Source: Clostridia bacterium (GTDB taxonomy: Bacteria > Bacillota > Clostridia > UBA1381 > UBA9506). Taken from it: DNA of 39,983 nt. The stretch spans positions 1 through 39,983 of the forward strand of contig JAZSOJ010000153.1 in NCBI GenBank assembly GCA_045536855.1, in the 5' to 3' direction. Shown here piece by piece: positions 1,918-38,120 of this stretch; position 1 is the stretch's first letter; every line of letters starts with the position of its first letter. Below the pieces are notes generated by a model. It searched no databases. It was given only the letters and a program-made list of their open reading frames with translations, and had not been told where the DNA came from. Position numbers and translations under genes: made by a program.

Positions 1918-3096
1918 TTATAAATCAAAGGTTGCAGTTGTTTCCCCGTCGATTGACCCTATTTTTGACCCCTTGAGCCAGTTTTCCACATGTTTCGCAA
2001 GCTGGGTGTGGCTCTGTCTCTCTCGCTGTTCCGTCAGGTGGGCATAGATGCGCATAATCATCTGCTGATCAGCGTGCCCGACCCACTTCATTGCTGTTTT
2101 TATGTCCACACCTGCATCGTAGAGCATAGTAACATAGCTGTGCCGCAGATCGTGTGGTCTGATGGTGCATTCTCTCCACGGCGGAAGCGTGCCGCCGGAA
2201 GCAAGAATAGCTTTGTGAGCCTTGGTGCGCCCATACCATCTGCGATGGCAACCGTTAATAAGTGTCTCCAAGTAGACAATGTAACTCTCCCATTTTCTGT
2301 GGAAAGCCGTCTCGCTCATGATGCCGCCGTTTTCGTCCTGCAAAACACCCCCAGAAACGCCTTGCAAAGCGGTTTTTAGCGGCTCGATGATGGGCACAGA
2401 CCTAATACCAGCCGCCGTCTTTGGAAGTGATAAAACCGGGCGATTTCCGTTGTATATGACTCCTTTTGTAACGTTGATACAGTTTTTTTGCAGATCTATG
2501 TCCGAAGCTGTAAGCGCCAAAACCTCACCACGGCGCAAACCAGCGTAGAGCATGATCATAACGGCAAGAGCCATGTCATGGTGTCCAACTGATCGGTGGA
2601 TAAGCTGCCGCTCATCATCTGTAATGGCTCTGTGCGTACCGCTGACAGCCTCCGGCGGGCGTGATCCATAGCACGGATTGGTGAGGATGACCCTGTCATG
2701 CACGGCGGCGGTGAATATACTATCAATAGTCATTTTAAATTTTTTCACGGAAGAAGAACTTTTCCCACGCATTGAATTAAACAGCTGTTGGATGTCGGTT
2801 GTTGTGATATCACGCATTCGGCGAGTACCAATAACATCAATGGCTCGGTTGACGATGCTTACATAAGCGTTGTAAGTGCGGTCTGAGCAGCCGTCTTTAT
2901 ACGTCTCGATCCATTGAATAGCGTAGGCTCCAAAGGTAACGCCGAGTGCCTGCTCACGCAAACCGCTCTCCAACTCTCTCCTGTAGACATCCCGTTTTGC
3001 GTTTGCTATCGCTTGCGTGGCTCCGTAAAAGTCTTTGCCTTTATACCGAACACGGTATCGCCCGTCTTTTCTTTTTTTATACGTTGCTTTTGGCAT
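1918..3096 (-). CDS. int: tyrosine site-specific integrase
   Basis: 392 aa. Arg box LRRGEVLAL and C-terminal HDLRHSYVTMLYDAGVDIKTAMKWVGHADQQMIMRIYAHL (R..HxxR..Y pattern). Abuts the tRNA fragment. Confidence 0.92.
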   Translation of the reverse strand: MPKATYKKRKDGRYRVRYKGKDFYGATQAIANAKRDVYRRELESGLREQALGVTFGAYAIQWIETYKDGCSDRTYNAYVSIVNRAIDVIGTRRMRDITTTDIQQLFNSMRGKSSSSVKKFKMTIDSIFTAAVHDRVILTNPCYGSRPPEAVSGTHRAITDDERQLIHRSVGHHDMALAVMIMLYAGLRRGEVLALTASDIDLQKNCINVTKGVIYNGNRPVLSLPKTAAGIRSVPIIEPLKTALQGVSGGVLQDENGGIMSETAFHRKWESYIVYLETLINGCHRRWYGRTKAHKAILASGGTLPPWRECTIRPHDLRHSYVTMLYDAGVDIKTAMKWVGHADQQMIMRIYAHLTEQRERQSHTQLAKHVENWLKGSKIGSIDGETTATFDL

Positions 3097-6668: not shown

Positions 6669-7061
6669 ATGAAACTGAAATCCATCGCCCGTGAAACCGC
6701 TGCCGGCATCCTGCTGGTTGCCATCGGCTTGCTGCTGTTCGTACTGTTGTACGGCATCGGCTTGACCCTGTTCGACATCCCAGCCGCCTGTGCTGAGGAA
6801 ACCCGCTGCCCGGTGGCTGTGGTCAATGTCAACCCCGGCAGCAGCCTCAATGTGCGGGAATCGCCCAATGGGCGGGTGGTGGGCAGCCTGAGCCGGGGCG
6901 CTGATGTGGTGGTGCTGGATCGGCAAAACGGCTGGTCGCTGGTCACCACCGAGCGGGATATGGCGCATGGTCATAGGCCGCTGGGCTGGGTCTACGCTGA
7001 CTATCTGGAAGAGTACCGATTTATCTTCCTGCCCAAAGAACAAAAAGCAAACGGCCTGTGA
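6669..7061 (+). CDS. membrane-anchored SH3b-domain protein
   Basis: ATG 6669 follows GAAAGGAG. TM helix AAGILLVAIGLLLFVLLYGIGL, then VNVNPGSSLNVRESPNGRVVGSLSRGADVVVLDRQNGWSLV (bacterial SH3 pattern). Confidence 0.6.
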   Translation: MKLKSIARETAAGILLVAIGLLLFVLLYGIGLTLFDIPAACAEETRCPVAVVNVNPGSSLNVRESPNGRVVGSLSRGADVVVLDRQNGWSLVTTERDMAHGHRPLGWVYADYLEEYRFIFLPKEQKANGL

Positions 7062-7141
7062 CACAAGGCCACAGACCGCTCACACTCACTACTAACTACT
7101 CACTAGCACTTAGATTGTATCACAAATCGGAGGAAAACACA

Positions 7142-7561
7142 ATGGATTATGCGATTTTGCGAGCCGATCAAAACCCCGATTTCGTTTATTTTGAGGATGA
7201 CACCCGCCCAGCCGATCATGTGTGCCCCACCTGCCAATCTGAATGGTGGCACGAGGACGGCGAATGGAACAGCGTCGGCATCTGGTCTGGCGTGGAGGAT
7301 CCCCGGCTGGGTCGCTACTGCCCCAATTGCGCCGAGGGCTATGTGACCAACAACGGCCTGTATAAGGCGCTGAAAAACGAGCGCCGCAGCACCACCTTGA
7401 AGCGTGAGGTTGTGGAGTTCATCCGCAAGAACGCCGATGACCTGCGCATCATCGATGCGGTGCTGGAGGCCGACCCTGATCTGTTTCGGGATGCTGCCCT
7501 GTATGTGCTGGGCGACCAGCACCCCGAAGAGCTTTGGGAGGTGGCACGGAATGAAGCATAG
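7142..7561 (+). CDS. hypothetical zinc-ribbon protein
   Basis: ATG 7142 follows GGAGGA. CPTC...CPNC pair. Confidence 0.55.
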   Translation: MDYAILRADQNPDFVYFEDDTRPADHVCPTCQSEWWHEDGEWNSVGIWSGVEDPRLGRYCPNCAEGYVTNNGLYKALKNERRSTTLKREVVEFIRKNADDLRIIDAVLEADPDLFRDAALYVLGDQHPEELWEVARNEA

Positions 7562-12030: not shown

Positions 12031-12846
12031 GTGGAAAGAAGGGCACCCAAACAGGTGATACGCCTGTTCAATGACAATTTTCAGAACTACAAGCGGTACA
12101 ACGTACCCAAAGCCCAGCTGGTGATTGCTGACATCCCCTATAACATCGGGCGCAACTTCTACGGCAGCAACCCCATGTGGTACAAAGGCGGCGACAGCAA
12201 AAACGGTGAAAGCAAGCTGGCAGGGAAAGCAGCATTCAATAGCGATTTCAATTTCAACATCGTGGAATATTTCCACTTCTGCAACCGTCTTTTAAAACCC
12301 GAACCCAAGCAGAGCAACGGCAGAGGCAAGAGCAGCGATGCCCCCTGCATGATCGTCTTTTGCAGCTTTGAGCAGCTGCAAACGGTGATAGAGACCGCCA
12401 AACAGTACGGTTTCGCCAATCATATCCCGCTGGTGTTCGTTAAGAACTATTCGCCGCAGGTGCTGAAAGCCAATATGCGCATCTGTGGAGCCACCGAATA
12501 TGGCCTTGTACTCTACCGTGGCAGGCTGCCCAAATTCCGAAACGGTGGGCATATGGTGTTCAACTGGTTTGAGTGGAAGCGGGACAGCACCAAGGAATAT
12601 CCCAAAATCCACCCGGCACAAAAGCCTGTATCGCTGCTGAAACGGCTGATCGAAATCTTCACCGATCCGGGGGATGTGGTGATTGACCCATGCGCCGGAA
12701 GTGGCTCCACGCTGAGGGCTGCCATGGAAAGCGGACGATCCGCATACGGGTTTGAAATCAGCCGGGATTTCTACCGGCAGGCGCAAGAAAAAATGCTTGC
12801 CGTGGATCATACTCAGGTGTCTATGTTTTCAGTTTTGGAGGGATAA
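12031..12846 (+). CDS. N6-adenine/N4-cytosine DNA methyltransferase (beta class)
   Basis: Catalytic VIADIPYNIG (DPPY-type) lies N-terminal to the AdoMet motif VIDPCAGSGSTLRAA; HPAQKPVSLLKRLI. GTG start. Confidence 0.88.
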   Translation: MERRAPKQVIRLFNDNFQNYKRYNVPKAQLVIADIPYNIGRNFYGSNPMWYKGGDSKNGESKLAGKAAFNSDFNFNIVEYFHFCNRLLKPEPKQSNGRGKSSDAPCMIVFCSFEQLQTVIETAKQYGFANHIPLVFVKNYSPQVLKANMRICGATEYGLVLYRGRLPKFRNGGHMVFNWFEWKRDSTKEYPKIHPAQKPVSLLKRLIEIFTDPGDVVIDPCAGSGSTLRAAMESGRSAYGFEISRDFYRQAQEKMLAVDHTQVSMFSVLEG

Positions 12847-13574: not shown

Positions 13575-13585
13575 GGGGGCGTTTG

Positions 13586-14377
13586 ATGGAGCATGTGTTG
13601 TCTCTGAGCTACGGCAAGAATTCTCTTGCCTGTCTGGGAGCTATCGAGCAGTTGGGATGGCCTCTGGATCGCATCGTGCATGCAGAGGTATGGGCTACTG
13701 ACACCATCCCGGCTGATCTGCCGCCCATGGTGGAATTCAAGGCCAAGGCTGATGAGATCATCCTGCGGCGGTGGGGAATCCGGGTGGAGCATTTTCGGGC
13801 TGATGTGAGCTATCAGGATGTGTTTTACAGGCATAGGGCTTATTCACGGTGGAAAGGTTTGCCTGTTGCAGAGATATACGGTTTCCCCTTTCAAAAAGGG
13901 GCGTGGTGCAATGACCGTTTGAAAATGGCAGCCATAAAAAAAGCCAAGACGAAGAACAGCATTTCATACGTTGGCATTGCATCGGATGAGCATTTGCGCA
14001 TAGAAAGGCATCAGAAAAAGTCGGATGTCAAAATGCCCCTTGTCGAAGCCGGTTGGACAGAGGCCATGTGCCGGGACTGGTGCCAGCAGAACGATCTTTT
14101 ATCGCCCATCTACACCACCGCAGCACGGGGGGGCTGCTGGTTCTGCCACAATCAAGGCGTTGACCAGCTTCGCATCCTGCGCAAAACCTACCCGGAATAC
14201 TGGAAGCTGCTGCTTAAATGGGACAACGACAGCCCGGTCACGTTCAAAGCCGATGGGCATACCGTCCATGATTTTGAAGAGCGTTTCCAGCTGGAAGATG
14301 AGCTGCTGATCGACCCATCAAAACCGTTCCGCTGGTCCATGCTGACCAGCGACCTACAATATCGCATGGACATTTAA
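13586..14377 (+). CDS. PAPS reductase/PP-loop (adenine nucleotide alpha-hydrolase) family protein
   Basis: ATG 13586 sits 6 nt after AAGGGGG. N-terminal PP-loop-like SLSYGKNSLA (canonical SGGKDS). C-terminal GGCWFCHNQ Cys motif. Confidence 0.7.
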   Translation: MEHVLSLSYGKNSLACLGAIEQLGWPLDRIVHAEVWATDTIPADLPPMVEFKAKADEIILRRWGIRVEHFRADVSYQDVFYRHRAYSRWKGLPVAEIYGFPFQKGAWCNDRLKMAAIKKAKTKNSISYVGIASDEHLRIERHQKKSDVKMPLVEAGWTEAMCRDWCQQNDLLSPIYTTAARGGCWFCHNQGVDQLRILRKTYPEYWKLLLKWDNDSPVTFKADGHTVHDFEERFQLEDELLIDPSKPFRWSMLTSDLQYRMDI

Positions 14378-18005: not shown

Positions 18006-18275
18006 ATGAGTACCTACGAACTGACCGCCACCGCCACCGAGCTGATGGAACTGAAGCGCATGCGTGAAGAGCTGGATGCCGAGATCGCCTCTCTGGAGGA
18101 TCAGATCAAAGCCCACATGGGCAACACCGAGCAGGTGACCGCCGGAGCCTTCAAGATCAGCTGGAAGACCGTCACCAGCAGCCGGGTGGACACCACCGCC
18201 CTGAAGAAGGCCATGCCGGAGCTGGCAGCCCAGTACACCAAGACCACCACCAGCCGCCGGTTCACCATTAACTGA
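18006..18275 (+). CDS. hypothetical coiled-coil protein
   Basis: RBS AAAGGGGA; 89 aa; N-terminal heptad-like ELMELKRMREELDAEIASLEDQIKAHM. Confidence 0.6.
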   Translation: MSTYELTATATELMELKRMREELDAEIASLEDQIKAHMGNTEQVTAGAFKISWKTVTSSRVDTTALKKAMPELAAQYTKTTTSRRFTIN

Positions 18276-18322
18276 TAGCAATGACCGCCGGGGGAGCAAT
18301 CCCCCGGCAGAAAGGACAACGT

Positions 18323-18589
18323 ATGAAAAGAGAATATGACGAGCTTGTTGATAAGAATTGTAAAAAGTCAAAGATTATCGGAAAATACGCTTTCATTACA
18401 GACAAAGAAAGCATTTACTATCGAGAATGGGGCAGAATTATTGACTATGATGGAGAAGCGTATTATATAGCGATTGCCGACGGTGCAGACAGTTTCCCGA
18501 TGTTCGACAGAGATCAATTCAAAGTCCCGCAAAGACAATTCTTGCGGTATCACGCTGACCTTATCAGAGAAAGGAACGCCATTATATAA
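18323..18589 (+). CDS. hypothetical protein (AT-richer insert)
   Basis: ATG 18323 follows AAAGGA. Visibly lower GC than its neighbours. Bracketed by GC hairpins at 18287-18308 and 18593-18610. Confidence 0.5.
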   Translation: MKREYDELVDKNCKKSKIIGKYAFITDKESIYYREWGRIIDYDGEAYYIAIADGADSFPMFDRDQFKVPQRQFLRYHADLIRERNAII

Positions 18590-18640
18590 CCACCCGCCCC
18601 GCACGGGGCGGCTGATCCCCGGGAGAAGGAGGCCCACCCC

Positions 18641-18919
18641 ATGATCACCACCCAATTCGTTTATCAGTTCGTCGGCGGCCCGTTAAATGGTCAGACCCTG
18701 ACCCATGAACAGGCCGAGGCCATCTCCATCGGGGAAAGCCCCAACTACACGCTGGAGCGTGCCATGGGGCGGCTGGTGCCCCGTGCGGAGCTGGATGAGC
18801 AGCCCCGGATTCCCGGCTATGTCGGCCCTATGTGGGACGGCACCCGAAACACCTCATTCGGCCTTGTGGGCGTGATCCGCTACGAGACCCAAGAGGTATA
18901 CAACACCCTGAGCAATTGA
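18641..18919 (+). CDS. hypothetical protein
   Basis: RBS GAAGGAGG; 92 aa. Confidence 0.55.
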   Translation: MITTQFVYQFVGGPLNGQTLTHEQAEAISIGESPNYTLERAMGRLVPRAELDEQPRIPGYVGPMWDGTRNTSFGLVGVIRYETQEVYNTLSN

Positions 18920-18962
18920 CCGATCCCCGCCCCGGAGGTGACGAGGGCAGAAAGGAACTGTC

Positions 18963-19877
18963 ATGATGTACTACGAAATCAACGAAGAAACCGCCCGGGT
19001 ATCCCATGATATGATGAGCATGCGGGATTATGTGCCCGGCAGCGCAACCGCCCGGTATCGTGCTTCTGTGGATAAGGCCGCCGAGCTGGTGGAGCAGCAG
19101 AAAAAGCAGGTAAGCGAGTTTTACCACGGCAAGCTGGATCACCTGCTGGACAGGTACGCCAAGACCCTTGCGGAGTACCTGAACCGGGAAAACCAAATCG
19201 GCACCATGTGCCCGTCCGTGATGATCGCCGGTGCCAGCAATTTCCCCGTGCACAAGAAGCAAAAGCAGGTTGCCGCATGGGATCGCAACCGGGAGAACTT
19301 TGAAAAGGCAGAAGCCATCCTGCGCCAGATCCGCAGCGTTGGCACCGGCCCCATCGACTTTGCCGACCCCCATGCCGAAGAAATGCTGACCGAGCGCATC
19401 GCCCTGCTGCAATCCGAGCTGGACGCATTCAAAGAGGCAAACGCCTACTATCGCAAGCACAAGACGCTGGAAGGCTGCCCCGGCATCAGCGAACGCCACC
19501 GGGAATGGCTGACCCGTCCCGGCGTGTTCCATGCGGGCGATGGCACGCCCTTGGAGCTGTACAAAGCCCCGTATACTTCTTACCACCTGACCAGCATCCG
19601 CACCCGGCTGAAAGCCGCCAAGCAGCGTCTGGAAGAGTACCACAACCGCCAGCAAAAGGCACAGCAGGGCGGCGACGATCTGAAATTCGACGGCGGCGAG
19701 ATCGTGCGCAATTCCGAGCTGAACCGGCTGCAAATCATCTTTGATGACATCCCGGACGATGACACCCGCACCGCCTTGAAGCGCAATGGTTTCCGCTGGT
19801 CGCCCTCCAACAAGGCATGGCAGCGGCAACTAACCGAAGCCGCCGAACGGGCAGCCCTGAGCATTGTTCGACAGTAA
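18963..19877 (+). CDS. DUF3560-like protein
   Basis: C-terminal FDGGEIVRNSELNRLQIIFDDIPDDDTRTALKRNGFRWSPSNKAWQRQ matches my memory of the DUF3560 motif (...LK..GFRWS....W). Needs a profile search. Confidence 0.5.
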   Translation: MMYYEINEETARVSHDMMSMRDYVPGSATARYRASVDKAAELVEQQKKQVSEFYHGKLDHLLDRYAKTLAEYLNRENQIGTMCPSVMIAGASNFPVHKKQKQVAAWDRNRENFEKAEAILRQIRSVGTGPIDFADPHAEEMLTERIALLQSELDAFKEANAYYRKHKTLEGCPGISERHREWLTRPGVFHAGDGTPLELYKAPYTSYHLTSIRTRLKAAKQRLEEYHNRQQKAQQGGDDLKFDGGEIVRNSELNRLQIIFDDIPDDDTRTALKRNGFRWSPSNKAWQRQLTEAAERAALSIVRQ

Positions 19878-19947
19878 CGCCGGCAGCAGGAATCCCCGCC
19901 ACGGGCGGCGAATAACTCAGGAAAGACAAACGAAGGAGGATGACACC

Positions 19948-20685: not shown

Positions 20686-20717
20686 GCGACCACCCACCCG
20701 GGCAGGTCGCTTTTTTT
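20686..20717 (+). terminator. strong intrinsic terminator abutting tRNA-Gly
   Basis: GCGACC...GGTCGC stem with inner CCC/GGG pairs, then T7 (20711-20717). Confidence 0.8.
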
Positions 20718-20719
20718 GT

Positions 20720-20794
20720 GCATCCGTAGCGTAGTTGGCAGCGTGCCAGCCTTCCAAGCTGGCGGGGTGGGTTCAAGCCCCATCGGATGCTCCA
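20720..20794 (+). tRNA. tRNA-Gly (anticodon UCC), CCA encoded, phage-borne
   Basis: Acceptor GCATCCG/CGGATGC. Anticodon stem CCAGC/GCTGG with loop CTTCCAA. T arm GTGGG-TTCAAGC-CCCAT. Weak D stem (2 G-U pairs). Confidence 0.85.
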
Positions 20795-20891: not shown

Positions 20892-21638
20892 GTGCAGATC
20901 ATCATGAAAAAGGTGTCGGAGCTGACACCGTATGACAAGAACGCTAAGAAGCATGATGCTGCACAGATCGCAAATGTGGCGCAGTCCATCAGCGAGATGG
21001 GATGGAAACAACCCATCGTAATCGATGCCAATGGCGTGGTGATCGTCGGGCATTGCCGTCTGCTGGCTGCCAAGAAGCTCAAGCAGAAGGAAGTGCCCTG
21101 CGTGGTGGCTGATGATCTGACCCCCGAGCAGATCAAGAAGTACCGCATTTTGGACAACAAGCTGGCAGAATCTCCGTGGGATCTCGACCTGCTGGCAGAG
21201 GATGCCGACGGGCTGGATTTCAGCGGGTATGATCTCGATCTGGGTCTGGATGTACAATCCGGGGGGGGTGCTACCAACGATGACATGTACACCTCGAAAA
21301 TTTCCACGCCCCAGTACCAAGTGACGGATGTGAAGCCGGAAATCTCCGCTCTCGTCGATCAAACCAAGACAGATGCCCTGCTGCTGGATATCGAAGGGGC
21401 TCAGGTGCCCGAAGAAATCAAACGGTTTCTCCAATTGGCTGCATATCGGCATTTGGTTTTCGATTATCACAACATCGCCGAATACTATGCCCATGCTCCG
21501 CAGGAAGTGCAGGAGCTGATGGAGCGTTCCGCATTGGTCATCATCGACTATAACGATGCCATTGCCGGTGGGTATGTAAAGCTGAAAAGCGAAATCGATC
21601 AGATGTTCGAGGAGGCTTTCGCCGCTGATGAGGAATGA
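20892..21638 (+). CDS. ParB N-terminal (ParB/Srx nuclease-like) domain protein with an unassigned C-terminal domain
   Basis: GTG 20892 sits 5 nt after AAAGGAGGGG. LTPYDKNAKKH...GWKQPIVIDANGVVIVGHCRLLAAKKL is the ParB-N signature (GxxRxxA). Confidence 0.75.
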   Translation: MQIIMKKVSELTPYDKNAKKHDAAQIANVAQSISEMGWKQPIVIDANGVVIVGHCRLLAAKKLKQKEVPCVVADDLTPEQIKKYRILDNKLAESPWDLDLLAEDADGLDFSGYDLDLGLDVQSGGGATNDDMYTSKISTPQYQVTDVKPEISALVDQTKTDALLLDIEGAQVPEEIKRFLQLAAYRHLVFDYHNIAEYYAHAPQEVQELMERSALVIIDYNDAIAGGYVKLKSEIDQMFEEAFAADEE

Positions 21639-22521
21639 TTTTTGTGCGTTCATTCTCTCACACGGCAGGGCGAACAACATAAAGACCCTCAAAGCCTTGC
21701 AGAAAGGCCATTACACAGGTCGCTGGTATATTGTTATCGATAACGAGGATGACCAGGAGGAAGAATACCGAAAGCGTTATCCCGGCCATGTGTTGCAGTT
21801 TGACAAGCTCGCCGTAAGCAAAACCTTCGATACAGCCGATACGGAGGAAAACCGCCGTACCATCGTATACGCCCGAAACGCCTGTTTCGATCTTGCAAGG
21901 GAAGTGGGTTGCAAGTACTTTTTGGAGCTTGACGACGATTATAATGTGTTCGAGCATAAAGTGAGTATCGGCGGAAAGCTGAAAGGGATCCCATGCACGG
22001 ATCTGGATAGACTTTTCACCGCTATGGTCGAATATCTGGAAAGCAGCGGAGCGGTTACGATTGCATTTGCGCAAGGTGGTGACTTCATTGGTGGAAAGGA
22101 TGGTACTGCCGCCAAGAAGGCGCTGCTGCGCAAGGCGATGAACACTTTCTTTTGCTCGGTAGATCGTCCTTTCCAATTCGTTGGTAGAATCAACGAGGAT
22201 GTGAACACCTACACCCGTATGGGTCAGATCGGAAAACTTGTTCTCACGGTCACCGATGTATCCATAACGCAGACCACCACCCAAAAGAATGCCGGCGGCA
22301 TGAGTGGCGTATATATCGACGGTGGAACATACCTCAAGAGCTTCTACAGCGTTTTGTTTTCTCCGTCCTGCGTAACCATCAATGCCATGGGCGACACCCA
22401 TAAGCGCATCCATCACAATGTGCATTGGCGATATTGTGCCGCCCAAATCCTTAACGAGAGATACAAAAAAGGAGGTACCCCATGCCCCGTGGCACACACC
22501 CCAACAGCCTCGCCAACCTGA
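21628..22521 (+). CDS. GT-A-fold glycosyltransferase-like protein (soluble)
   Basis: FILSHGR (beta1), WYIVIDNEDD (beta2 plus acidic), ARNACFDLAREVGCKYFLELDDDY (GT2-like N..A..G..flDDD DxD motif), late NAGGMSGVY. No TM helix. Overlaps the ParB-like gene end and the TerS start. Confidence 0.55.
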   Translation: MRNDFCAFILSHGRANNIKTLKALQKGHYTGRWYIVIDNEDDQEEEYRKRYPGHVLQFDKLAVSKTFDTADTEENRRTIVYARNACFDLAREVGCKYFLELDDDYNVFEHKVSIGGKLKGIPCTDLDRLFTAMVEYLESSGAVTIAFAQGGDFIGGKDGTAAKKALLRKAMNTFFCSVDRPFQFVGRINEDVNTYTRMGQIGKLVLTVTDVSITQTTTQKNAGGMSGVYIDGGTYLKSFYSVLFSPSCVTINAMGDTHKRIHHNVHWRYCAAQILNERYKKGGTPCPVAHTPTASPT

Positions 22522-22847
22522 AAAAGGGCAAGCGATTCGATGGTCACGACGGGTCTGCGAGGAAAGCACAGGAGAAAAGTGCTGCGGCACAGTCCGAACG
22601 CAAGACCCTGCGTGAAGGTCTGCTGCTGCTGCTCTCCGAGGAGTTGAAGAAGGACGGACAGCCCACCGGCAAGACCACGCAGGATGCCATCATTGCCGGT
22701 CTGGTCAAGCGTGCTGTGGCTGGCGATACCCGTGCTTTTGAGATCATCCGGGACACCATCGGCGAAAAGCCCGTGGAGCGCATCGCCAACGTGACACCCG
22801 ATCCTGATGTGATCGCAGATGTGGAAAAGGCGTTGTTTGGAAAATGA
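22482..22847 (+). CDS. terminase small subunit (putative)
   Basis: Strong RBS AAAGGAGG. N-terminal GTHPNSLANLKKGKRF motif; position immediately upstream of TerL. Confidence 0.6.
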   Translation: MPRGTHPNSLANLKKGKRFDGHDGSARKAQEKSAAAQSERKTLREGLLLLLSEELKKDGQPTGKTTQDAIIAGLVKRAVAGDTRAFEIIRDTIGEKPVERIANVTPDPDVIADVEKALFGK

Positions 22848-24091
22848 GTTATTCAAGGGATGATTACATCCGGGTTTTTCGTGATGAACCTGCCCGAATC
22901 GGGCATATGGTAGGGTTCACCGATCTGGGCGAGCTGCACAACCAATGGATGAAGGATATGCTGTACGGCGAAGGCGATATGACCCTGCTGGCGCACCGCC
23001 TGAGCTATAAAACCACCTGCGTTTCGGTTGTGCTTGCTGTGTATGTGGCCTGCCTGCCCAGAATATCCACCATGTTCATGCGCAAAACCGATACCGACGT
23101 GAAGGAAATCATCCACCAGACCAAAAACATTTTGGAAAACCCCAGCTTCGCCCATGCGGTGAAAATGATCATGGGCAAGCCGTTGGAACTGCTGACCGCC
23201 ACTTCCACCGAGATCAACACCAATTTCAACCTGTCCACCCGTGGCACCTCTCAGCTGCTGGGCATTGGCTCCGGCAGCAGCATCACCGGTAAGCACTACG
23301 ACCGCATCTTTACCGATGACATCGTCAACCGGGAGGACAGGGTGAGCGCAGCCGAGCGTGAGCGCATCAATGGCGTTTACATGGAGCTGCAAAACGTGCG
23401 CACCCATAACAGCCGGATCATCAACACCGGCACGCCGTGGCACAAGGAGGATGCCATCAGCACCCTGATGCCCAATGTGCAGCGGTATGACTGTTACTCC
23501 ACCGGCATCATGTCCCCGCAAATGATCGAGGAAAAGCGGCAAAGCATGGCACCGTCCCTTTTCGCCGCCAACTATGAGCTGCAGCACATCGCCGCCGAGA
23601 ACGCCCTGTTTGCTACCGCCCCCGGCAGGACGGATGACATCACCCTGCTGTATGACGGCATCGCCCATGTGGATGCTGCCTATGGCGGCGAGGATGGTAC
23701 CGCATTCACCTGCGGATGCCGCCGGGGCGATACCCTGTACCTCTACGGCAAGCTGTGGCACAAGCACGTGGATACCGTGATGGATTTCATCGCCAGCGAG
23801 TGCAAGCGGCTCAGGTGCGAGCCATTGTATTGCGAGACCAACGCCGACAAGGGCTTTTTCGGGCGGGAAATCCGAAAGCAGGGCATTGTCACCCGCATGT
23901 ATGCCGAGCGTGAAAACAAATACTATAAAATCTCAACGTTTCTCCGCAAATGGTGGGGGAACGTTGTTTTCGTTCAGGGCACCGATCCGGAGTATATCGC
24001 ACAGATCATGGACTATACCGAGGATGCTGCCCACGACGATGCCCCCGACAGCGCAGCCTGTGTCTGCCGCATTTTAGACCGCAGGGAGTGA
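22844..24091 (+). CDS. terL: terminase large subunit
   Basis: Walker A-like LLAHRLSYKTT, Walker B RIFTDDIV, GTPWH. C-terminal nuclease acidic residues (VDAAYGGEDG, DDAPDS). Confidence 0.88.
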   Translation: MSYSRDDYIRVFRDEPARIGHMVGFTDLGELHNQWMKDMLYGEGDMTLLAHRLSYKTTCVSVVLAVYVACLPRISTMFMRKTDTDVKEIIHQTKNILENPSFAHAVKMIMGKPLELLTATSTEINTNFNLSTRGTSQLLGIGSGSSITGKHYDRIFTDDIVNREDRVSAAERERINGVYMELQNVRTHNSRIINTGTPWHKEDAISTLMPNVQRYDCYSTGIMSPQMIEEKRQSMAPSLFAANYELQHIAAENALFATAPGRTDDITLLYDGIAHVDAAYGGEDGTAFTCGCRRGDTLYLYGKLWHKHVDTVMDFIASECKRLRCEPLYCETNADKGFFGREIRKQGIVTRMYAERENKYYKISTFLRKWWGNVVFVQGTDPEYIAQIMDYTEDAAHDDAPDSAACVCRILDRRE

Positions 24092-24096
24092 CCCAT

Positions 24097-25539
24097 ATGT
24101 ACATCAAGCACACATACCAAGACTGGCTCGCCACCCCCGAGGGGAAGCGGCTGGAACTTTTGGAGCAGATCATCGCCTCCTACAAAGGCAGCGACGAATT
24201 CAAGGCCGCCGCCGTGGCTGACGGCTACTATACCGGCGAACACACCGCCGTGGATAGCAAGTACATCCTGAAGCCGCAAAAGGTGACCTACACCGAGGAA
24301 GGCAAGGAAAAGAAATGCACACAGATGGCAGAGGTAAGAGGCAACCGCATCAATTGCGATTTCTTCCGTCGCTTTGTGGTGCAGCGCACCCATTACAGCC
24401 TCGCCAACGGGGTGGTGATCGATGGCAATCCCAGCGAGGATGTGCTGGGCAGCGGTATCGACCACGCCATTTCCACCGCAGCCCAGAAAGCCCAGATTCA
24501 CGGCATCTGCTGGGGCTACTGGAACGCCGACCATCTGGAGATCATCCCGGCATACGATGGCGGCCTGTCCGGCTTCGTGGCTCTGGTGGATGAGCGCACC
24601 AGCCAGCCCATGGTTGGCATCCACTTCTGGCAGCTGGACACGGATCGCCCCCTGTGGGTGCGCCTTTTCGAGACTGACGGCATGACGGAGTACCGCAAGA
24701 CCAAGGATGACAAAAGCCTTGTCGTGCATGCCAAAAAGCGCACCTATAAGCAAACCATTGCCACTGATGCCGCCGGGTCTGAGGTGGTGGGCGGCACCAA
24801 TTACGGTGCTTTGCCCGTCGTGCCGCTGTATGCCAACGAGATGCAGCGCAGCACCCTGACCCCCGCCATCAAGCGCAAGATCGACGCTTACGATGTGATC
24901 ACCAGCGACTTTGCCGACAATCTGGAACAGGCCAACGAAATCTATTGGGTATTGAATAATTTTGGCGGCACCCAATCCGATATTGCCGAAACGCTGGAAA
25001 CCATCCACAGGCTGAAAGCCATCGCTAATGTGAGCGACGGCATGGGCAGCAGCACCGTGGAGGCCAAGTCTTTCGATGTTCCCTATGCTGCCCGTCAGAC
25101 CGCCATCGCCCTGCTGACCGAGACCCTGCACGATGATGCCATGATCGTCAACCTGAAAGAGATCACCGGCGGTAGCCTGACCAACGTTGCCATTGAGACC
25201 GCATTCACCCGCATGGATTTGGGTGCGGATGAGCTGGAATGGCAAGTGTTCGCCTTTGTGCAGCAGCTGCTTCGCCTCAATGGTGTGGATACCGAGGACA
25301 TCACTTTCAAGCGTGCCCGGCTTTTCAACACTTCCGAGACCATCCAGAATATCTATTTGATGCGCCAAGACATCTCCCGGCGCACCGCCCTGACCCTGAA
25401 TCCCATGATCGCCGCCGATGAGGTAGACCAGATCATGCAGGAGTCCGACGAGGAACAGGCCGCCAGCCGGGAGATGGCTGCCATCGCTGCTGCTGTAGAC
25501 AACGAAATGGAGGACGAAGATGATCCTGCTGCCGAATGA
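24097..25539 (+). CDS. portal protein
   Basis: ATG 24097 follows GGGAG. 480 aa directly after TerL; acidic C-terminus. Confidence 0.8.
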   Translation: MYIKHTYQDWLATPEGKRLELLEQIIASYKGSDEFKAAAVADGYYTGEHTAVDSKYILKPQKVTYTEEGKEKKCTQMAEVRGNRINCDFFRRFVVQRTHYSLANGVVIDGNPSEDVLGSGIDHAISTAAQKAQIHGICWGYWNADHLEIIPAYDGGLSGFVALVDERTSQPMVGIHFWQLDTDRPLWVRLFETDGMTEYRKTKDDKSLVVHAKKRTYKQTIATDAAGSEVVGGTNYGALPVVPLYANEMQRSTLTPAIKRKIDAYDVITSDFADNLEQANEIYWVLNNFGGTQSDIAETLETIHRLKAIANVSDGMGSSTVEAKSFDVPYAARQTAIALLTETLHDDAMIVNLKEITGGSLTNVAIETAFTRMDLGADELEWQVFAFVQQLLRLNGVDTEDITFKRARLFNTSETIQNIYLMRQDISRRTALTLNPMIAADEVDQIMQESDEEQAASREMAAIAAAVDNEMEDEDDPAAE

Positions 25540-37218: not shown

Positions 37219-37332
37219 ATGAATCCATTGCATCTGATATGGATTGTGCCCGTGTGCACGCTGACCGGAGGCGTTTTGATGGCACTGGCTGCTGCGAGCG
37301 GAAGAAACAGCAACGGCGGTGATAGCGCATGA
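37219..37332 (+). CDS. 37-aa membrane peptide upstream of the endolysin
   Basis: ATG 37219 sits 8 nt after AAGGAGGG. MNPLHLIWIVPVCTLTGGVLMALAAASGRNSNGGDSA. ATGA-coupled to the endolysin. Confidence 0.45.
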   Translation: MNPLHLIWIVPVCTLTGGVLMALAAASGRNSNGGDSA

Positions 37333-38120
37333 TCACCGTCAATCAATTTTTGGAGGCGGTGCAGGCCATCGCCATGACCCCTGGCCTGACCTACCGCATA
37401 GGCGGCACCGGCACTGATGGCACATGCGACTGCATTGGCCTGATCATCGGCGCTATCAATAGGGTGCAAAAAACGGTTTTTCCGCGCAAAAGCACCAATT
37501 ATTTCGCCCGGCATGAGATGGCGACCTTTGAGCCTATAGAGGATGCTGACATCCTGCCGGGGATGATCGTCTATAAAGACCGCCCGGACACAGGCCAGCT
37601 CAACGACAGCTATAAACCCGGTGGAGAGTTTTACAACGGCGACCCACGAGACCACTACCACGCCGGGGCGGTGCTGTCCACCCTTCCGCTGTCCATCGTG
37701 CATTGCACCTCTGGCGGCGGTGTAAATGGCATCACCTATGATGATGATCTGTCCAATTGGTCACATGCTGGCAAGTTGAAACTGGTCGAGTTTGCAGAGG
37801 ATGTGATCGACATGTCCGAGACCACTCAGGCCGTTGTAGTTACGCCCGACGGCAACCCCGTCAAGCTGCGATCAACCCCCAGCACCGACAAACCGTACAT
37901 CGCCAAGATTCCCGATGGGGATAATGTGCAGGTGTTTGCCGATGCGCAGGGCTGGGCAAAAGTGATTTGGCAAGGCCGGGCTGGCTACTGCATGAGTAAA
38001 TTTTTGCAGTATGATGGGCAGCCTGAGCCGGAGGACGCTGCAACGCCCAGATGGGCGGCCTTGATACTGGATAAGCTGGATCAGGTGATTGGGCTTTTGA
38101 AGCGTGGAACCGCTGATTGA
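37329..38120 (+). CDS. endolysin: NlpC/P60-like cysteine peptidase with a C-terminal SH3b domain
   Basis: Catalytic-type GTCDCIGLIIGA and DHYHAGAVL. C-terminal VKLRSTPSTDKPYIAKIPDGDNVQVFADAQGWAKVIWQGRAGYCMSKFL. Confidence 0.75.
   Translation: MITVNQFLEAVQAIAMTPGLTYRIGGTGTDGTCDCIGLIIGAINRVQKTVFPRKSTNYFARHEMATFEPIEDADILPGMIVYKDRPDTGQLNDSYKPGGEFYNGDPRDHYHAGAVLSTLPLSIVHCTSGGGVNGITYDDDLSNWSHAGKLKLVEFAEDVIDMSETTQAVVVTPDGNPVKLRSTPSTDKPYIAKIPDGDNVQVFADAQGWAKVIWQGRAGYCMSKFLQYDGQPEPEDAATPRWAALILDKLDQVIGLLKRGTAD

Follow-up and report, generated by a model that had tools for sequence, protein, structure and literature searches.

The window analysed here (the whole stretch of 39,983 nucleotides of contig JAZSOJ010000153.1 from the Clostridia bacterium assembly GCA_045536855.1) is a complete temperate siphovirus-type prophage, and the element in question is a pair of overlapping genes positioned immediately in front of its terminase genes. 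The first gene (20892-21638, plus strand) encodes a ParB-like protein; its best start is the GTG codon at 20892, which is preceded at a distance of 7 nt by an AAGGAGG sequence, and the resulting protein of 248 amino acids (aa) is equal in length to its closest homolog. The second open reading frame (ORF; 21628..22521, plus strand) starts with an ATG codon at 21628, has a GAGGAGG sequence 12 nt upstream, and encodes a 297-aa glycosyltransferase. It is followed by a candidate gene for TerS (22482..22847, plus strand; ATG at 22482, AAGGAGG 6 nt upstream), which we assign from its position, its size and its strong ribosome-binding site and for which only weak family matches were found (DUF5681, E=0.0014), and by the gene for TerL, the large terminase subunit (22844..24091, plus strand; PHROG 38, E=1e-62).

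Consecutive ORFs overlap by 11 nt (ParB-like/glycosyltransferase), 40 nt (glycosyltransferase/TerS) and 4 nt (TerS/TerL), and the ribosome-binding sites are good, so that the four genes form one tightly coupled unit, as had been proposed in an initial annotation of this DNA that was made from the sequence alone. The same annotation described the first two proteins as translationally fused into the operon; here the coupling stands but the fusion does not, because the ORFs overlap yet are separately initiated and lie in different frames. A frameshift or a true fusion of the two proteins in the window was likewise considered and rejected, since the frames differ and an overlap of 8 or 11 nt is the conserved state of this gene pair. 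The 40-nt overlap with TerS corresponds to a poorly conserved, low-confidence tail of the glycosyltransferase that most homologs do not possess.

The 297-aa protein is a TAGT-family enzyme with a GT-A fold

The 297-aa protein clearly belongs to the Pfam family PF20691, TAGT (TET-associated glycosyltransferase): its score is 146.1 bits against a gathering threshold of 27.5 (E=1.7e-42), and the match spans profile positions 4-205 of 205. Further matches are to PHROG 842 (E=7e-75) and PHROG 31222, and all 120 of the homologs listed carry PF20691. These matches, like that of the ParB-like protein to PHROG 620 (E=4e-49), far exceed chance. The initial annotation had left the enzyme as an unplaced GT-A-like protein; it can now be assigned to the very TET-associated group that had been raised as one option. 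In GenBank phages, the gene is already annotated under the PHROG name "beta-glucosyl-HMC-alpha-glucosyltransferase".

An AlphaFold2 model of the protein (pLDDT, the predicted local distance difference test, 78; pTM, the predicted template modelling score, 0.79) shows a GT-A fold. Foldseek searches against the PDB recovered ColGalT1, TarP (6h4m), SpsA and GnT-I as top matches (probability 1.0), with glycogenin also among the matches, while the top matches among the viral models of the BFVD were TAGT proteins (template modelling score, TM, of 0.80-0.83); the T-even-type "beta-glucosyl-HMC-alpha-glucosyltransferase" of Klebsiella phage PKO111 was matched there with a TM of 0.63. Phage GT-A enzymes with the active-site motifs R...DDD...ED(Y/F) have been defined previously, and glycosylation of 5-hydroxymethylcytosine (5hmC) in DNA by enzymes of this kind has been demonstrated experimentally (bioRxiv 10.1101/2023.12.21.572611). 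In the window protein, the DDD motif is located at residues 102-104 and the ED motif at 190-191, the third motif reading EDV. Among 34 homologs, R14, R83, D102, D104, E190 and D191 never vary, and at least 90% of the sequences retain D103. The predicted fold and the conserved DDD motif uphold the earlier view of a GT-A enzyme in which a DxD motif is retained. The quoted motifs are likewise all present in the order given, namely GHCRLLAAKKL (from residue 53 of the ParB-like protein) and, in the glycosyltransferase, FILSHGR (residue 8), WYIVIDNEDD (residue 33), ARNACFDLAREVGCKYFLELDDDY (residue 82) and NAGGMSGVY (residue 221). The glycosyltransferase is soluble, as had also been proposed, and has no transmembrane segment; its highest Kyte-Doolittle mean over 19 residues is 1.14.

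The TAGT is a basic protein (isoelectric point, pI, 8.5). It carries a conserved, clade-specific C-terminal extension (approximately residues 225-285) beyond the end of the Pfam model, which is covered by PHROG 31222. No NCBIfam model matched the TAGT, the TerS candidate or a PAPS-reductase-like protein encoded elsewhere in the window, and no PADLOC model matched the TAGT.

The partner protein combines a ParB/Srx-type domain with an acidic helical domain

The product of the first gene consists of a ParB/Srx-type N-terminal domain (20892..21218, plus strand; residues 1 to about 105), an acidic disordered linker and a separate helical C-terminal domain (C-domain) of approximately 110 aa (21264..21638, plus strand). 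This layout agrees with the initial annotation. The single-sequence score for Pfam ParB_N (PF02195) is 24.1 bits, slightly under the gathering threshold of 26.3. A profile of the family, when compared with PDB sequences, matches Spo0J (6sdk, E=4e-9), with GHCR aligned to the GERR of the GxxR motif, and Foldseek searches with the full-length model retrieved Noc, ParB and KorB at a probability of 1.0, again recovering only the ParB N-domain. This domain resembles that of ParB-methyltransferase fusion proteins (PHROG 498, E=6e-36), including the N-terminal part (residues 10-169 of 436) of the PADLOC model MTase_II PDLC03229 (E=1e-24). No variation was seen among 32 homologs at G49, H50, R52 and D84-N85-K86; this pattern is compatible with a predicted nucleotide-binding function.

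A function as a partition ParB protein was considered and rejected: only profile residues 3-116 match ParB structures, and no helix-turn-helix or C-terminal dimerisation domain is recognised. Nor was a match to the ParA family found in our Pfam and PHROGs scan of the window, which covered all ORFs of 100 aa or more that plausibly code for a protein, together with several smaller ones.

The C-domain belongs to no Pfam family, and the family profile matches nothing in its C-terminal half among PDB sequences. It is predicted to be helical, with pLDDT values of 83-96 over roughly residues 141-200, and is recognisable by the motif YTxKxxxPxY followed by FL..AA.RH..F.Y..IAEYYAHA...Q.LME.SALVIID...AI..GY. 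In an alignment of 150 representatives with the window protein (residues numbered from the ATG at 20904), Y129, P136, Y138, F175, L176, R182, H183, A192, Y195, Q203, E207, L211, D215, A219 and G223 are conserved to 97-100%. Linker and C-domain together (from about residue 106 to the end) have a pI of 4.1. In an exhaustive search, the number of representative clusters found to contain the C-domain was 1157. It is C-terminal in 143 of the 150 best representatives; about one in four of these 150 lack an N-domain, and a few carry other additions. Two unusual architectures were seen. One protein (P0314, 634 aa) carries an N-terminal region of approximately 370 aa with a weak match to DXD glycosyltransferases (E=0.01) in front of ParB-N and C-domain, and another (P0339, 449 aa) has a P-loop (GGSCAGKSS) kinase-like tail behind the C-domain.

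The C-domain consistently accompanies this TAGT clade

In all 88 phage loci (80 IMG/VR loci, seven annotated GenBank phage regions and one metagenome contig), a homolog of the C-domain adjoins the TAGT gene, and in the great majority of them the partner's stop codon overlaps the TAGT start by 8 or 11 nt; the Lactobacillus phage phi jlb1 and the haloarchaeal virus HHTV-2 belong to this group. Species-representative genomes from many phyla gave the same picture. Of 74 genome loci with enough upstream sequence, 73 have the C-domain next to the TAGT (overlap of 11 nt in 35, of 8 nt in 24), and the sole exception contains a truncated TAGT. Each of the 28 GenBank phage records with a C-domain also carries the TAGT, which is present in 34 records altogether.

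One locus (L014:9269-10849) contains a single 526-aa ORF that encodes ParB-N, C-domain and TAGT together. Either the two genes have fused naturally here, or a sequencing error occurred at the point where they normally overlap. Conversely, the partner occurs as a stand-alone C-domain protein of about 140 aa without ParB-N in several loci (L012, L013, L081/82, L017/18) and in Vibrio jumbo phages (L086). When two genes are strictly adjacent, share a conserved coupling overlap and have a naturally fused counterpart, this classically indicates that their products act as a complex; these features suggest that partner and TAGT associate physically.

No further gene recurrently accompanies the pair, as judged from a pooled Pfam scan of 18 loci and tblastn searches of 84 loci. 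The sugar acceptor must therefore be something that every host or phage provides. The initial annotation had drawn attention to two early genes of the prophage, those for an amino-methyltransferase (12031-12846, plus strand; N6/N4 type) and for the PAPS-reductase-like protein (13583-14377, plus strand). This link could not be maintained: across the 84 related loci the PAPS-reductase-like gene was not found once and the methyltransferase only in a few scattered cases, and both were rejected as cassette partners.

The cassette is widespread and keeps its position in front of unrelated terminases

Matches to the glycosyltransferase comprise at least 7,900 protein clusters at 90% identity. The host range includes Clostridia, Veillonella, Bacilli, Bacteroidota, Enterobacteriaceae, Desulfovibrionaceae, Verrucomicrobiota, Chlorobi, SAR11, Saccharibacteria, Actinobacteria and archaea; identities across these hosts, haloarchaeal viruses included, amount to 42-59%. 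DNA matching the pair is present in 1580 of 5426 complete Escherichia coli genomes (about 29%), in 889 of them at full length, and many RefSeq genomes of this species label the ParB-like gene as ynaK. In the E. coli phage locus that we inspected (L004), the pair occurs in a lambdoid prophage, flanked by trkG and the terminase. At the corresponding site, the Rac prophage of strain K-12 presumably has a truncated ynaK together with the pseudogene ydaY. The arrangement is therefore not peculiar to the prophage studied here, and solitary TAGTs and ParB or terminase neighbours have been mentioned in passing (PMC13216743; bioRxiv 10.1101/2023.12.21.572611).

With eight TerL seeds, a large terminase gene was detected within about 3 kb downstream of the cassette in 50 of 78 loci; 20 of the remaining loci were sampled and contained Terminase_3 (7), Terminase_6N (7) or GpA (1). 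The pair hence lies mostly just ahead of TerL, as a survey along the lines proposed in the initial annotation confirmed, and it is combined with unrelated replication modules and with at least four terminase families. Its position has been preserved although the terminases themselves are unrelated, as seen from the differing TerL families downstream. The coupling to packaging suggested in the initial annotation is one of position only. Exceptions in position are mostly loci with the stand-alone C-domain (L081/82, L086), whose neighbours encode DNA polymerase III beta, the clamp loader, helicase and primase. The cassette is also present in virulent dairy phages and in jumbo phages.

Other features of the prophage

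The left arm of the prophage contains the integrase gene (1918-3096, minus strand) together with helix-turn-helix regulators. The early region on the plus strand encodes a Sak annealing protein, HNHc_6, SSB, a DnaD-like loader, DnaB helicase, RusA, DUF551, YopX, a MazG-like pyrophosphatase and a PHROG-19458 protein, in addition to the two early genes mentioned above. Behind the terminase genes follow the gene for an SPP1-type portal protein (24097..25539, plus strand; Pfam SPP1_portal, E=3e-23), those for a Mu-F-like protein, the scaffold and the tail, and the gene for an SH3-domain protein that is probably the endolysin (37329-38120). In genome searches, the closest match to the 297-aa protein was found in a metagenome-assembled Eubacteriales bacterium (89% identity).

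A tRNA-Gly gene (anticodon TCC; 20720..20794, plus strand; detected by ARAGORN) is a neighbour of the cassette, 97 nt upstream of the ParB-like gene. Directly in front of it, on the plus strand, lies a G+C-rich hairpin with a T run (20690-20718), which was noticed by eye and was also among the minus-strand matches of a promoter/terminator scan; it may be a terminator between the early genes and the tRNA plus late operon. The scan itself revealed nothing decisive around the cassette. The E. coli phage vB_EcoS-683R6 possesses a tRNA-Gly(TCC) gene as well, about 3.7 kb upstream of its ParB-TAGT pair. By its title, a 2026 paper deals with a single viral enzyme that carries out tRNA-dependent DNA hypermodification at adenine (PMC13219725).

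The PHROG-19458 protein (304 aa; 18963-19877) matches its family, named "primase", over the full length (E=2.5e-109) and has no significant Pfam match; its gene is distant from the replication module and stands immediately ahead of the late genes. The PAPS-reductase-like protein is matched only by the C-terminal part of PHROG 424 (positions 161-386 of 460), has no Pfam or NCBIfam match, and resembles SspD (PADLOC, E=2e-12); it probably belongs to a separate system and may represent a separate DNA-modification function. In a related Clostridia phage contig (L085), the early region encodes a FolD-like methylene-tetrahydrofolate dehydrogenase/cyclohydrolase (6792-7553), and a head-protease protein fused to an ADP-ribosyltransferase toxin domain (18014-19918) is followed there by an ADP-ribosylglycohydrolase.

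Relation to known systems

The TAGT family includes the T2/T6 enzyme that adds a second glucose to glucosyl-5hmC (PMC13216743; PMC13390438). The window protein shares with this beta-glucosyl-HMC-alpha-glucosyltransferase, which modifies DNA (PMC13216743), the PF20691 domain, the GT-A fold and the DDD motif. However, the T-even enzyme acts on alpha-glucosyl-5hmC and hence depends on a dCMP hydroxymethylase and an alpha-glucosyltransferase, neither of which was found among the window ORFs scanned; T-even phages are also absent from the tblastn matches at E<=1e-5 and show no partner C-domain either. The name of PHROG 842 should therefore not be taken as the function of the window protein.

Closer in some respects are the GT-A enzymes of uncultured phages that are associated with C5-methyltransferases and 5mYOX (TET) proteins (PMC8256090; bioRxiv 10.1101/2023.12.21.572611). 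They have the same fold and R...DDD...ED motifs, TarP is a top PDB match of both groups, and a post-replicative action on DNA is proposed for both. In contrast to the clade studied here, in whose scanned neighbourhoods no such genes were found, they cluster with a C5-methyltransferase and a TET-like dioxygenase that make 5hmC; what marks the window clade instead is a ParB/C-domain protein dedicated to it and a location beside the terminase. Fusions of ParB-N to DNA methyltransferases (PHROG 498; PDLC03229) likewise join a ParB/Srx N-domain to a DNA-modifying catalytic unit, but in these proteins the methyltransferase is part of the same chain, whereas in the window the glycosyltransferase is a separate, coupled chain that would be attached via the clade-specific adaptor domain. 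The CTP-dependent clamps Spo0J, Noc and KorB resemble the partner in the fold of the N-domain and in the GxxR motif; the rest of the partner is an unrelated acidic helical domain, with neither ParA nor a parS context.

Iyer and colleagues, who reportedly named the TAGT in 2013 (in NAR), may already mention ParB-TAGT neighbourhoods. In the literature that we searched, we did not find the dedicated C-domain partner, the conserved overlap, the natural fusion, the self-sufficiency of the pair or its kept position described, and we regard these features as new.

A proposed DNA-directed glycosyltransferase complex and its alternatives

To the reading that the pair constitutes a late-expressed, DNA-directed glycosyltransferase complex we would give an even chance of being correct. 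The two genes would then form one self-contained accessory cassette of tailed phages, with the TAGT as its catalytic subunit. Both proteins would be produced at a ratio of 1:1 from the overlapping ORFs with which the late/packaging operon begins; the acidic C-domain, which is specific to this TAGT clade, would most likely bind the basic enzyme, and the ParB/Srx N-domain would most likely bring the complex to DNA, possibly in a nucleoside triphosphate-dependent manner. The TAGT would transfer a sugar, presumably taken from a nucleoside diphosphate-sugar of the host, to the DNA of progeny phages, either just before packaging or in the course of it. This sugar might serve as a post-replicative protective mark for the next infection, with a timing akin to that of the phage Mu Mom function, a late-expressed DNA modification that marks the progeny DNA rather than that of the host. 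The analogy is one of timing only; Mom is an acyltransferase-type enzyme that acts on adenine, and there is no relation in sequence or fold.

We favour DNA as the probable target because of the known substrates of the family, because the ParB-N domain is of the type common to DNA methyltransferases, and because the neighbourhoods are DNA-related: the placement next to the terminase and, where ParB-N is missing, among the replisome genes both point to DNA. Several findings weigh against this reading. No TET_JBP, Thymidylat_synt (hydroxymethylase-like) or C5 DNA_methylase domain was detected in the window ORFs scanned, in line with the initial annotation; the usual sugar acceptor thus appears to be missing. 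Among relatives (120 early ORFs from 18 diverse related loci, searched in the pooled Pfam scan), no TET, ThyA-like or C5-methyltransferase family was present among the 25 most frequent of the 81 families matched, a survey in which rare single occurrences could stay hidden; one ThyX and one FolD were seen, each in a single ORF. The C-domain, being acidic, is unlikely to bind DNA itself. In some virulent phages of Lactobacillus delbrueckii the cassette has decayed, with the TAGT split into two ORFs in phiLdb (L003:848-1713) and truncated in LL-Ku and Ld17, so that it must be dispensable under some (dairy) conditions. To our knowledge, every characterised TAGT or phage GT-A enzyme transfers to a hydroxyl group on a modified base or on a sugar attached there, and we know of no precedent for the glycosylation of canonical DNA. 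The literature that we searched contained no experiments on any member of this clade. A stronger form of the proposal, that the pair is a complete two-protein system which glycosylates ordinary, unmodified DNA and needs no enzyme for a precursor base, is one that we consider unlikely; the acceptor atom could then be part of a canonical base, of a backbone position or of the DNA ends made by the terminase.

A protein instead of DNA might be the acceptor, a reading whose probability we likewise rate as low. The TAGT would glycosylate either its own partner, in a glycogenin-like manner and on the YTxKxxxPxY motif with its invariant Tyr/Thr, or another product of the same operon that belongs to the virion or the packaging machinery. 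Since only two genes travel together, an enzyme-plus-substrate pair would be a suitable description of the cassette, and it adjoins structural and packaging genes. The 98-99% conservation of Y129, P136 and Y138 among 150 distant representatives, despite linker pLDDT values below 50, would also fit a modified site. The presence of glycogenin among the Foldseek matches, which might seem to favour this reading, reflects generic GT-A similarity (TM 0.25-0.29). The characterised members of the family act on DNA, the type of ParB-N domain is that of DNA methyltransferases, and in jumbo and other phages the pair is found among replisome and not among structural genes; these observations argue against a protein acceptor.

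Quite improbable, in our estimation, is a conventional glycosyltransferase for hydroxymethylated pyrimidines, whose hydroxylated base would stem from an unrecognised phage enzyme, perhaps the C-domain, in which R-H, Y, Q, E and D residues are invariant, or would be supplied by the 5hmC- or hydroxymethyluracil-containing DNA of superinfecting phages, which a prophage-encoded activity would exclude. The TAGT has the same kind of active-site motifs as GT-A enzymes acting on 5hmC, the invariant polar residues of the C-domain are enzyme-like, and prophage glycosyltransferases acting on invading genomes have been proposed (bioRxiv 10.1101/2023.12.21.572611). Yet the C-domain, helical, acidic and only about 110 aa long, bears no similarity to any dioxygenase or hydroxymethylase, the pair sits in the late operon instead of in a lysogeny-expressed position, and its carriers include jumbo phages and virulent phages from dairies. 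The appearance of TarP (6h4m) among the top structural matches might suggest a glycosylation of the host envelope that blocks superinfection, as prophage TarP modifies wall teichoic acid, but we hold this to be most improbable, given that the TAGT is soluble and without a membrane segment, that it is strictly paired with a ParB-type protein, that its gene lies in a late operon, and that the same cassette (42-59% identity) serves Gram-positive, Gram-negative, candidate phyla radiation and archaeal hosts, which have no envelope polymer in common.

Implications for phage DNA-type glycosyltransferases

About 65% of roughly 25,000 phage contigs with such glycosyltransferases are without 5mYOX/ThyS (bioRxiv 10.1101/2023.12.21.572611), and 288 of 753 TAGT-carrying phage genomes have neither an alpha- nor a beta-glucosyltransferase (PMC13216743); the role of phage DNA-type glycosyltransferases without accompanying modification enzymes is an acknowledged open question. 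The ParB-TAGT group is probably the largest group among them. Our data add to this question that the TAGT of this clade never travels alone but together with one specific partner domain, in a pair that is self-sufficient and strongly conserved. The copy in the window is an ordinary member of this very common cassette, and tractable models are at hand in the ynaK-positive lambdoid prophages of E. coli and in cultured Lactobacillus phages. If the pair marks a protein, the TAGT family would not be restricted to DNA. If it marks DNA, it would represent a new chemistry against restriction, which could disturb the sequencing and cloning of such phages; and should ordinary, unmodified DNA prove to be the acceptor, this would be the first glycosylation of canonical DNA, present in prophages of a wide range of bacteria and in some archaeal viruses.

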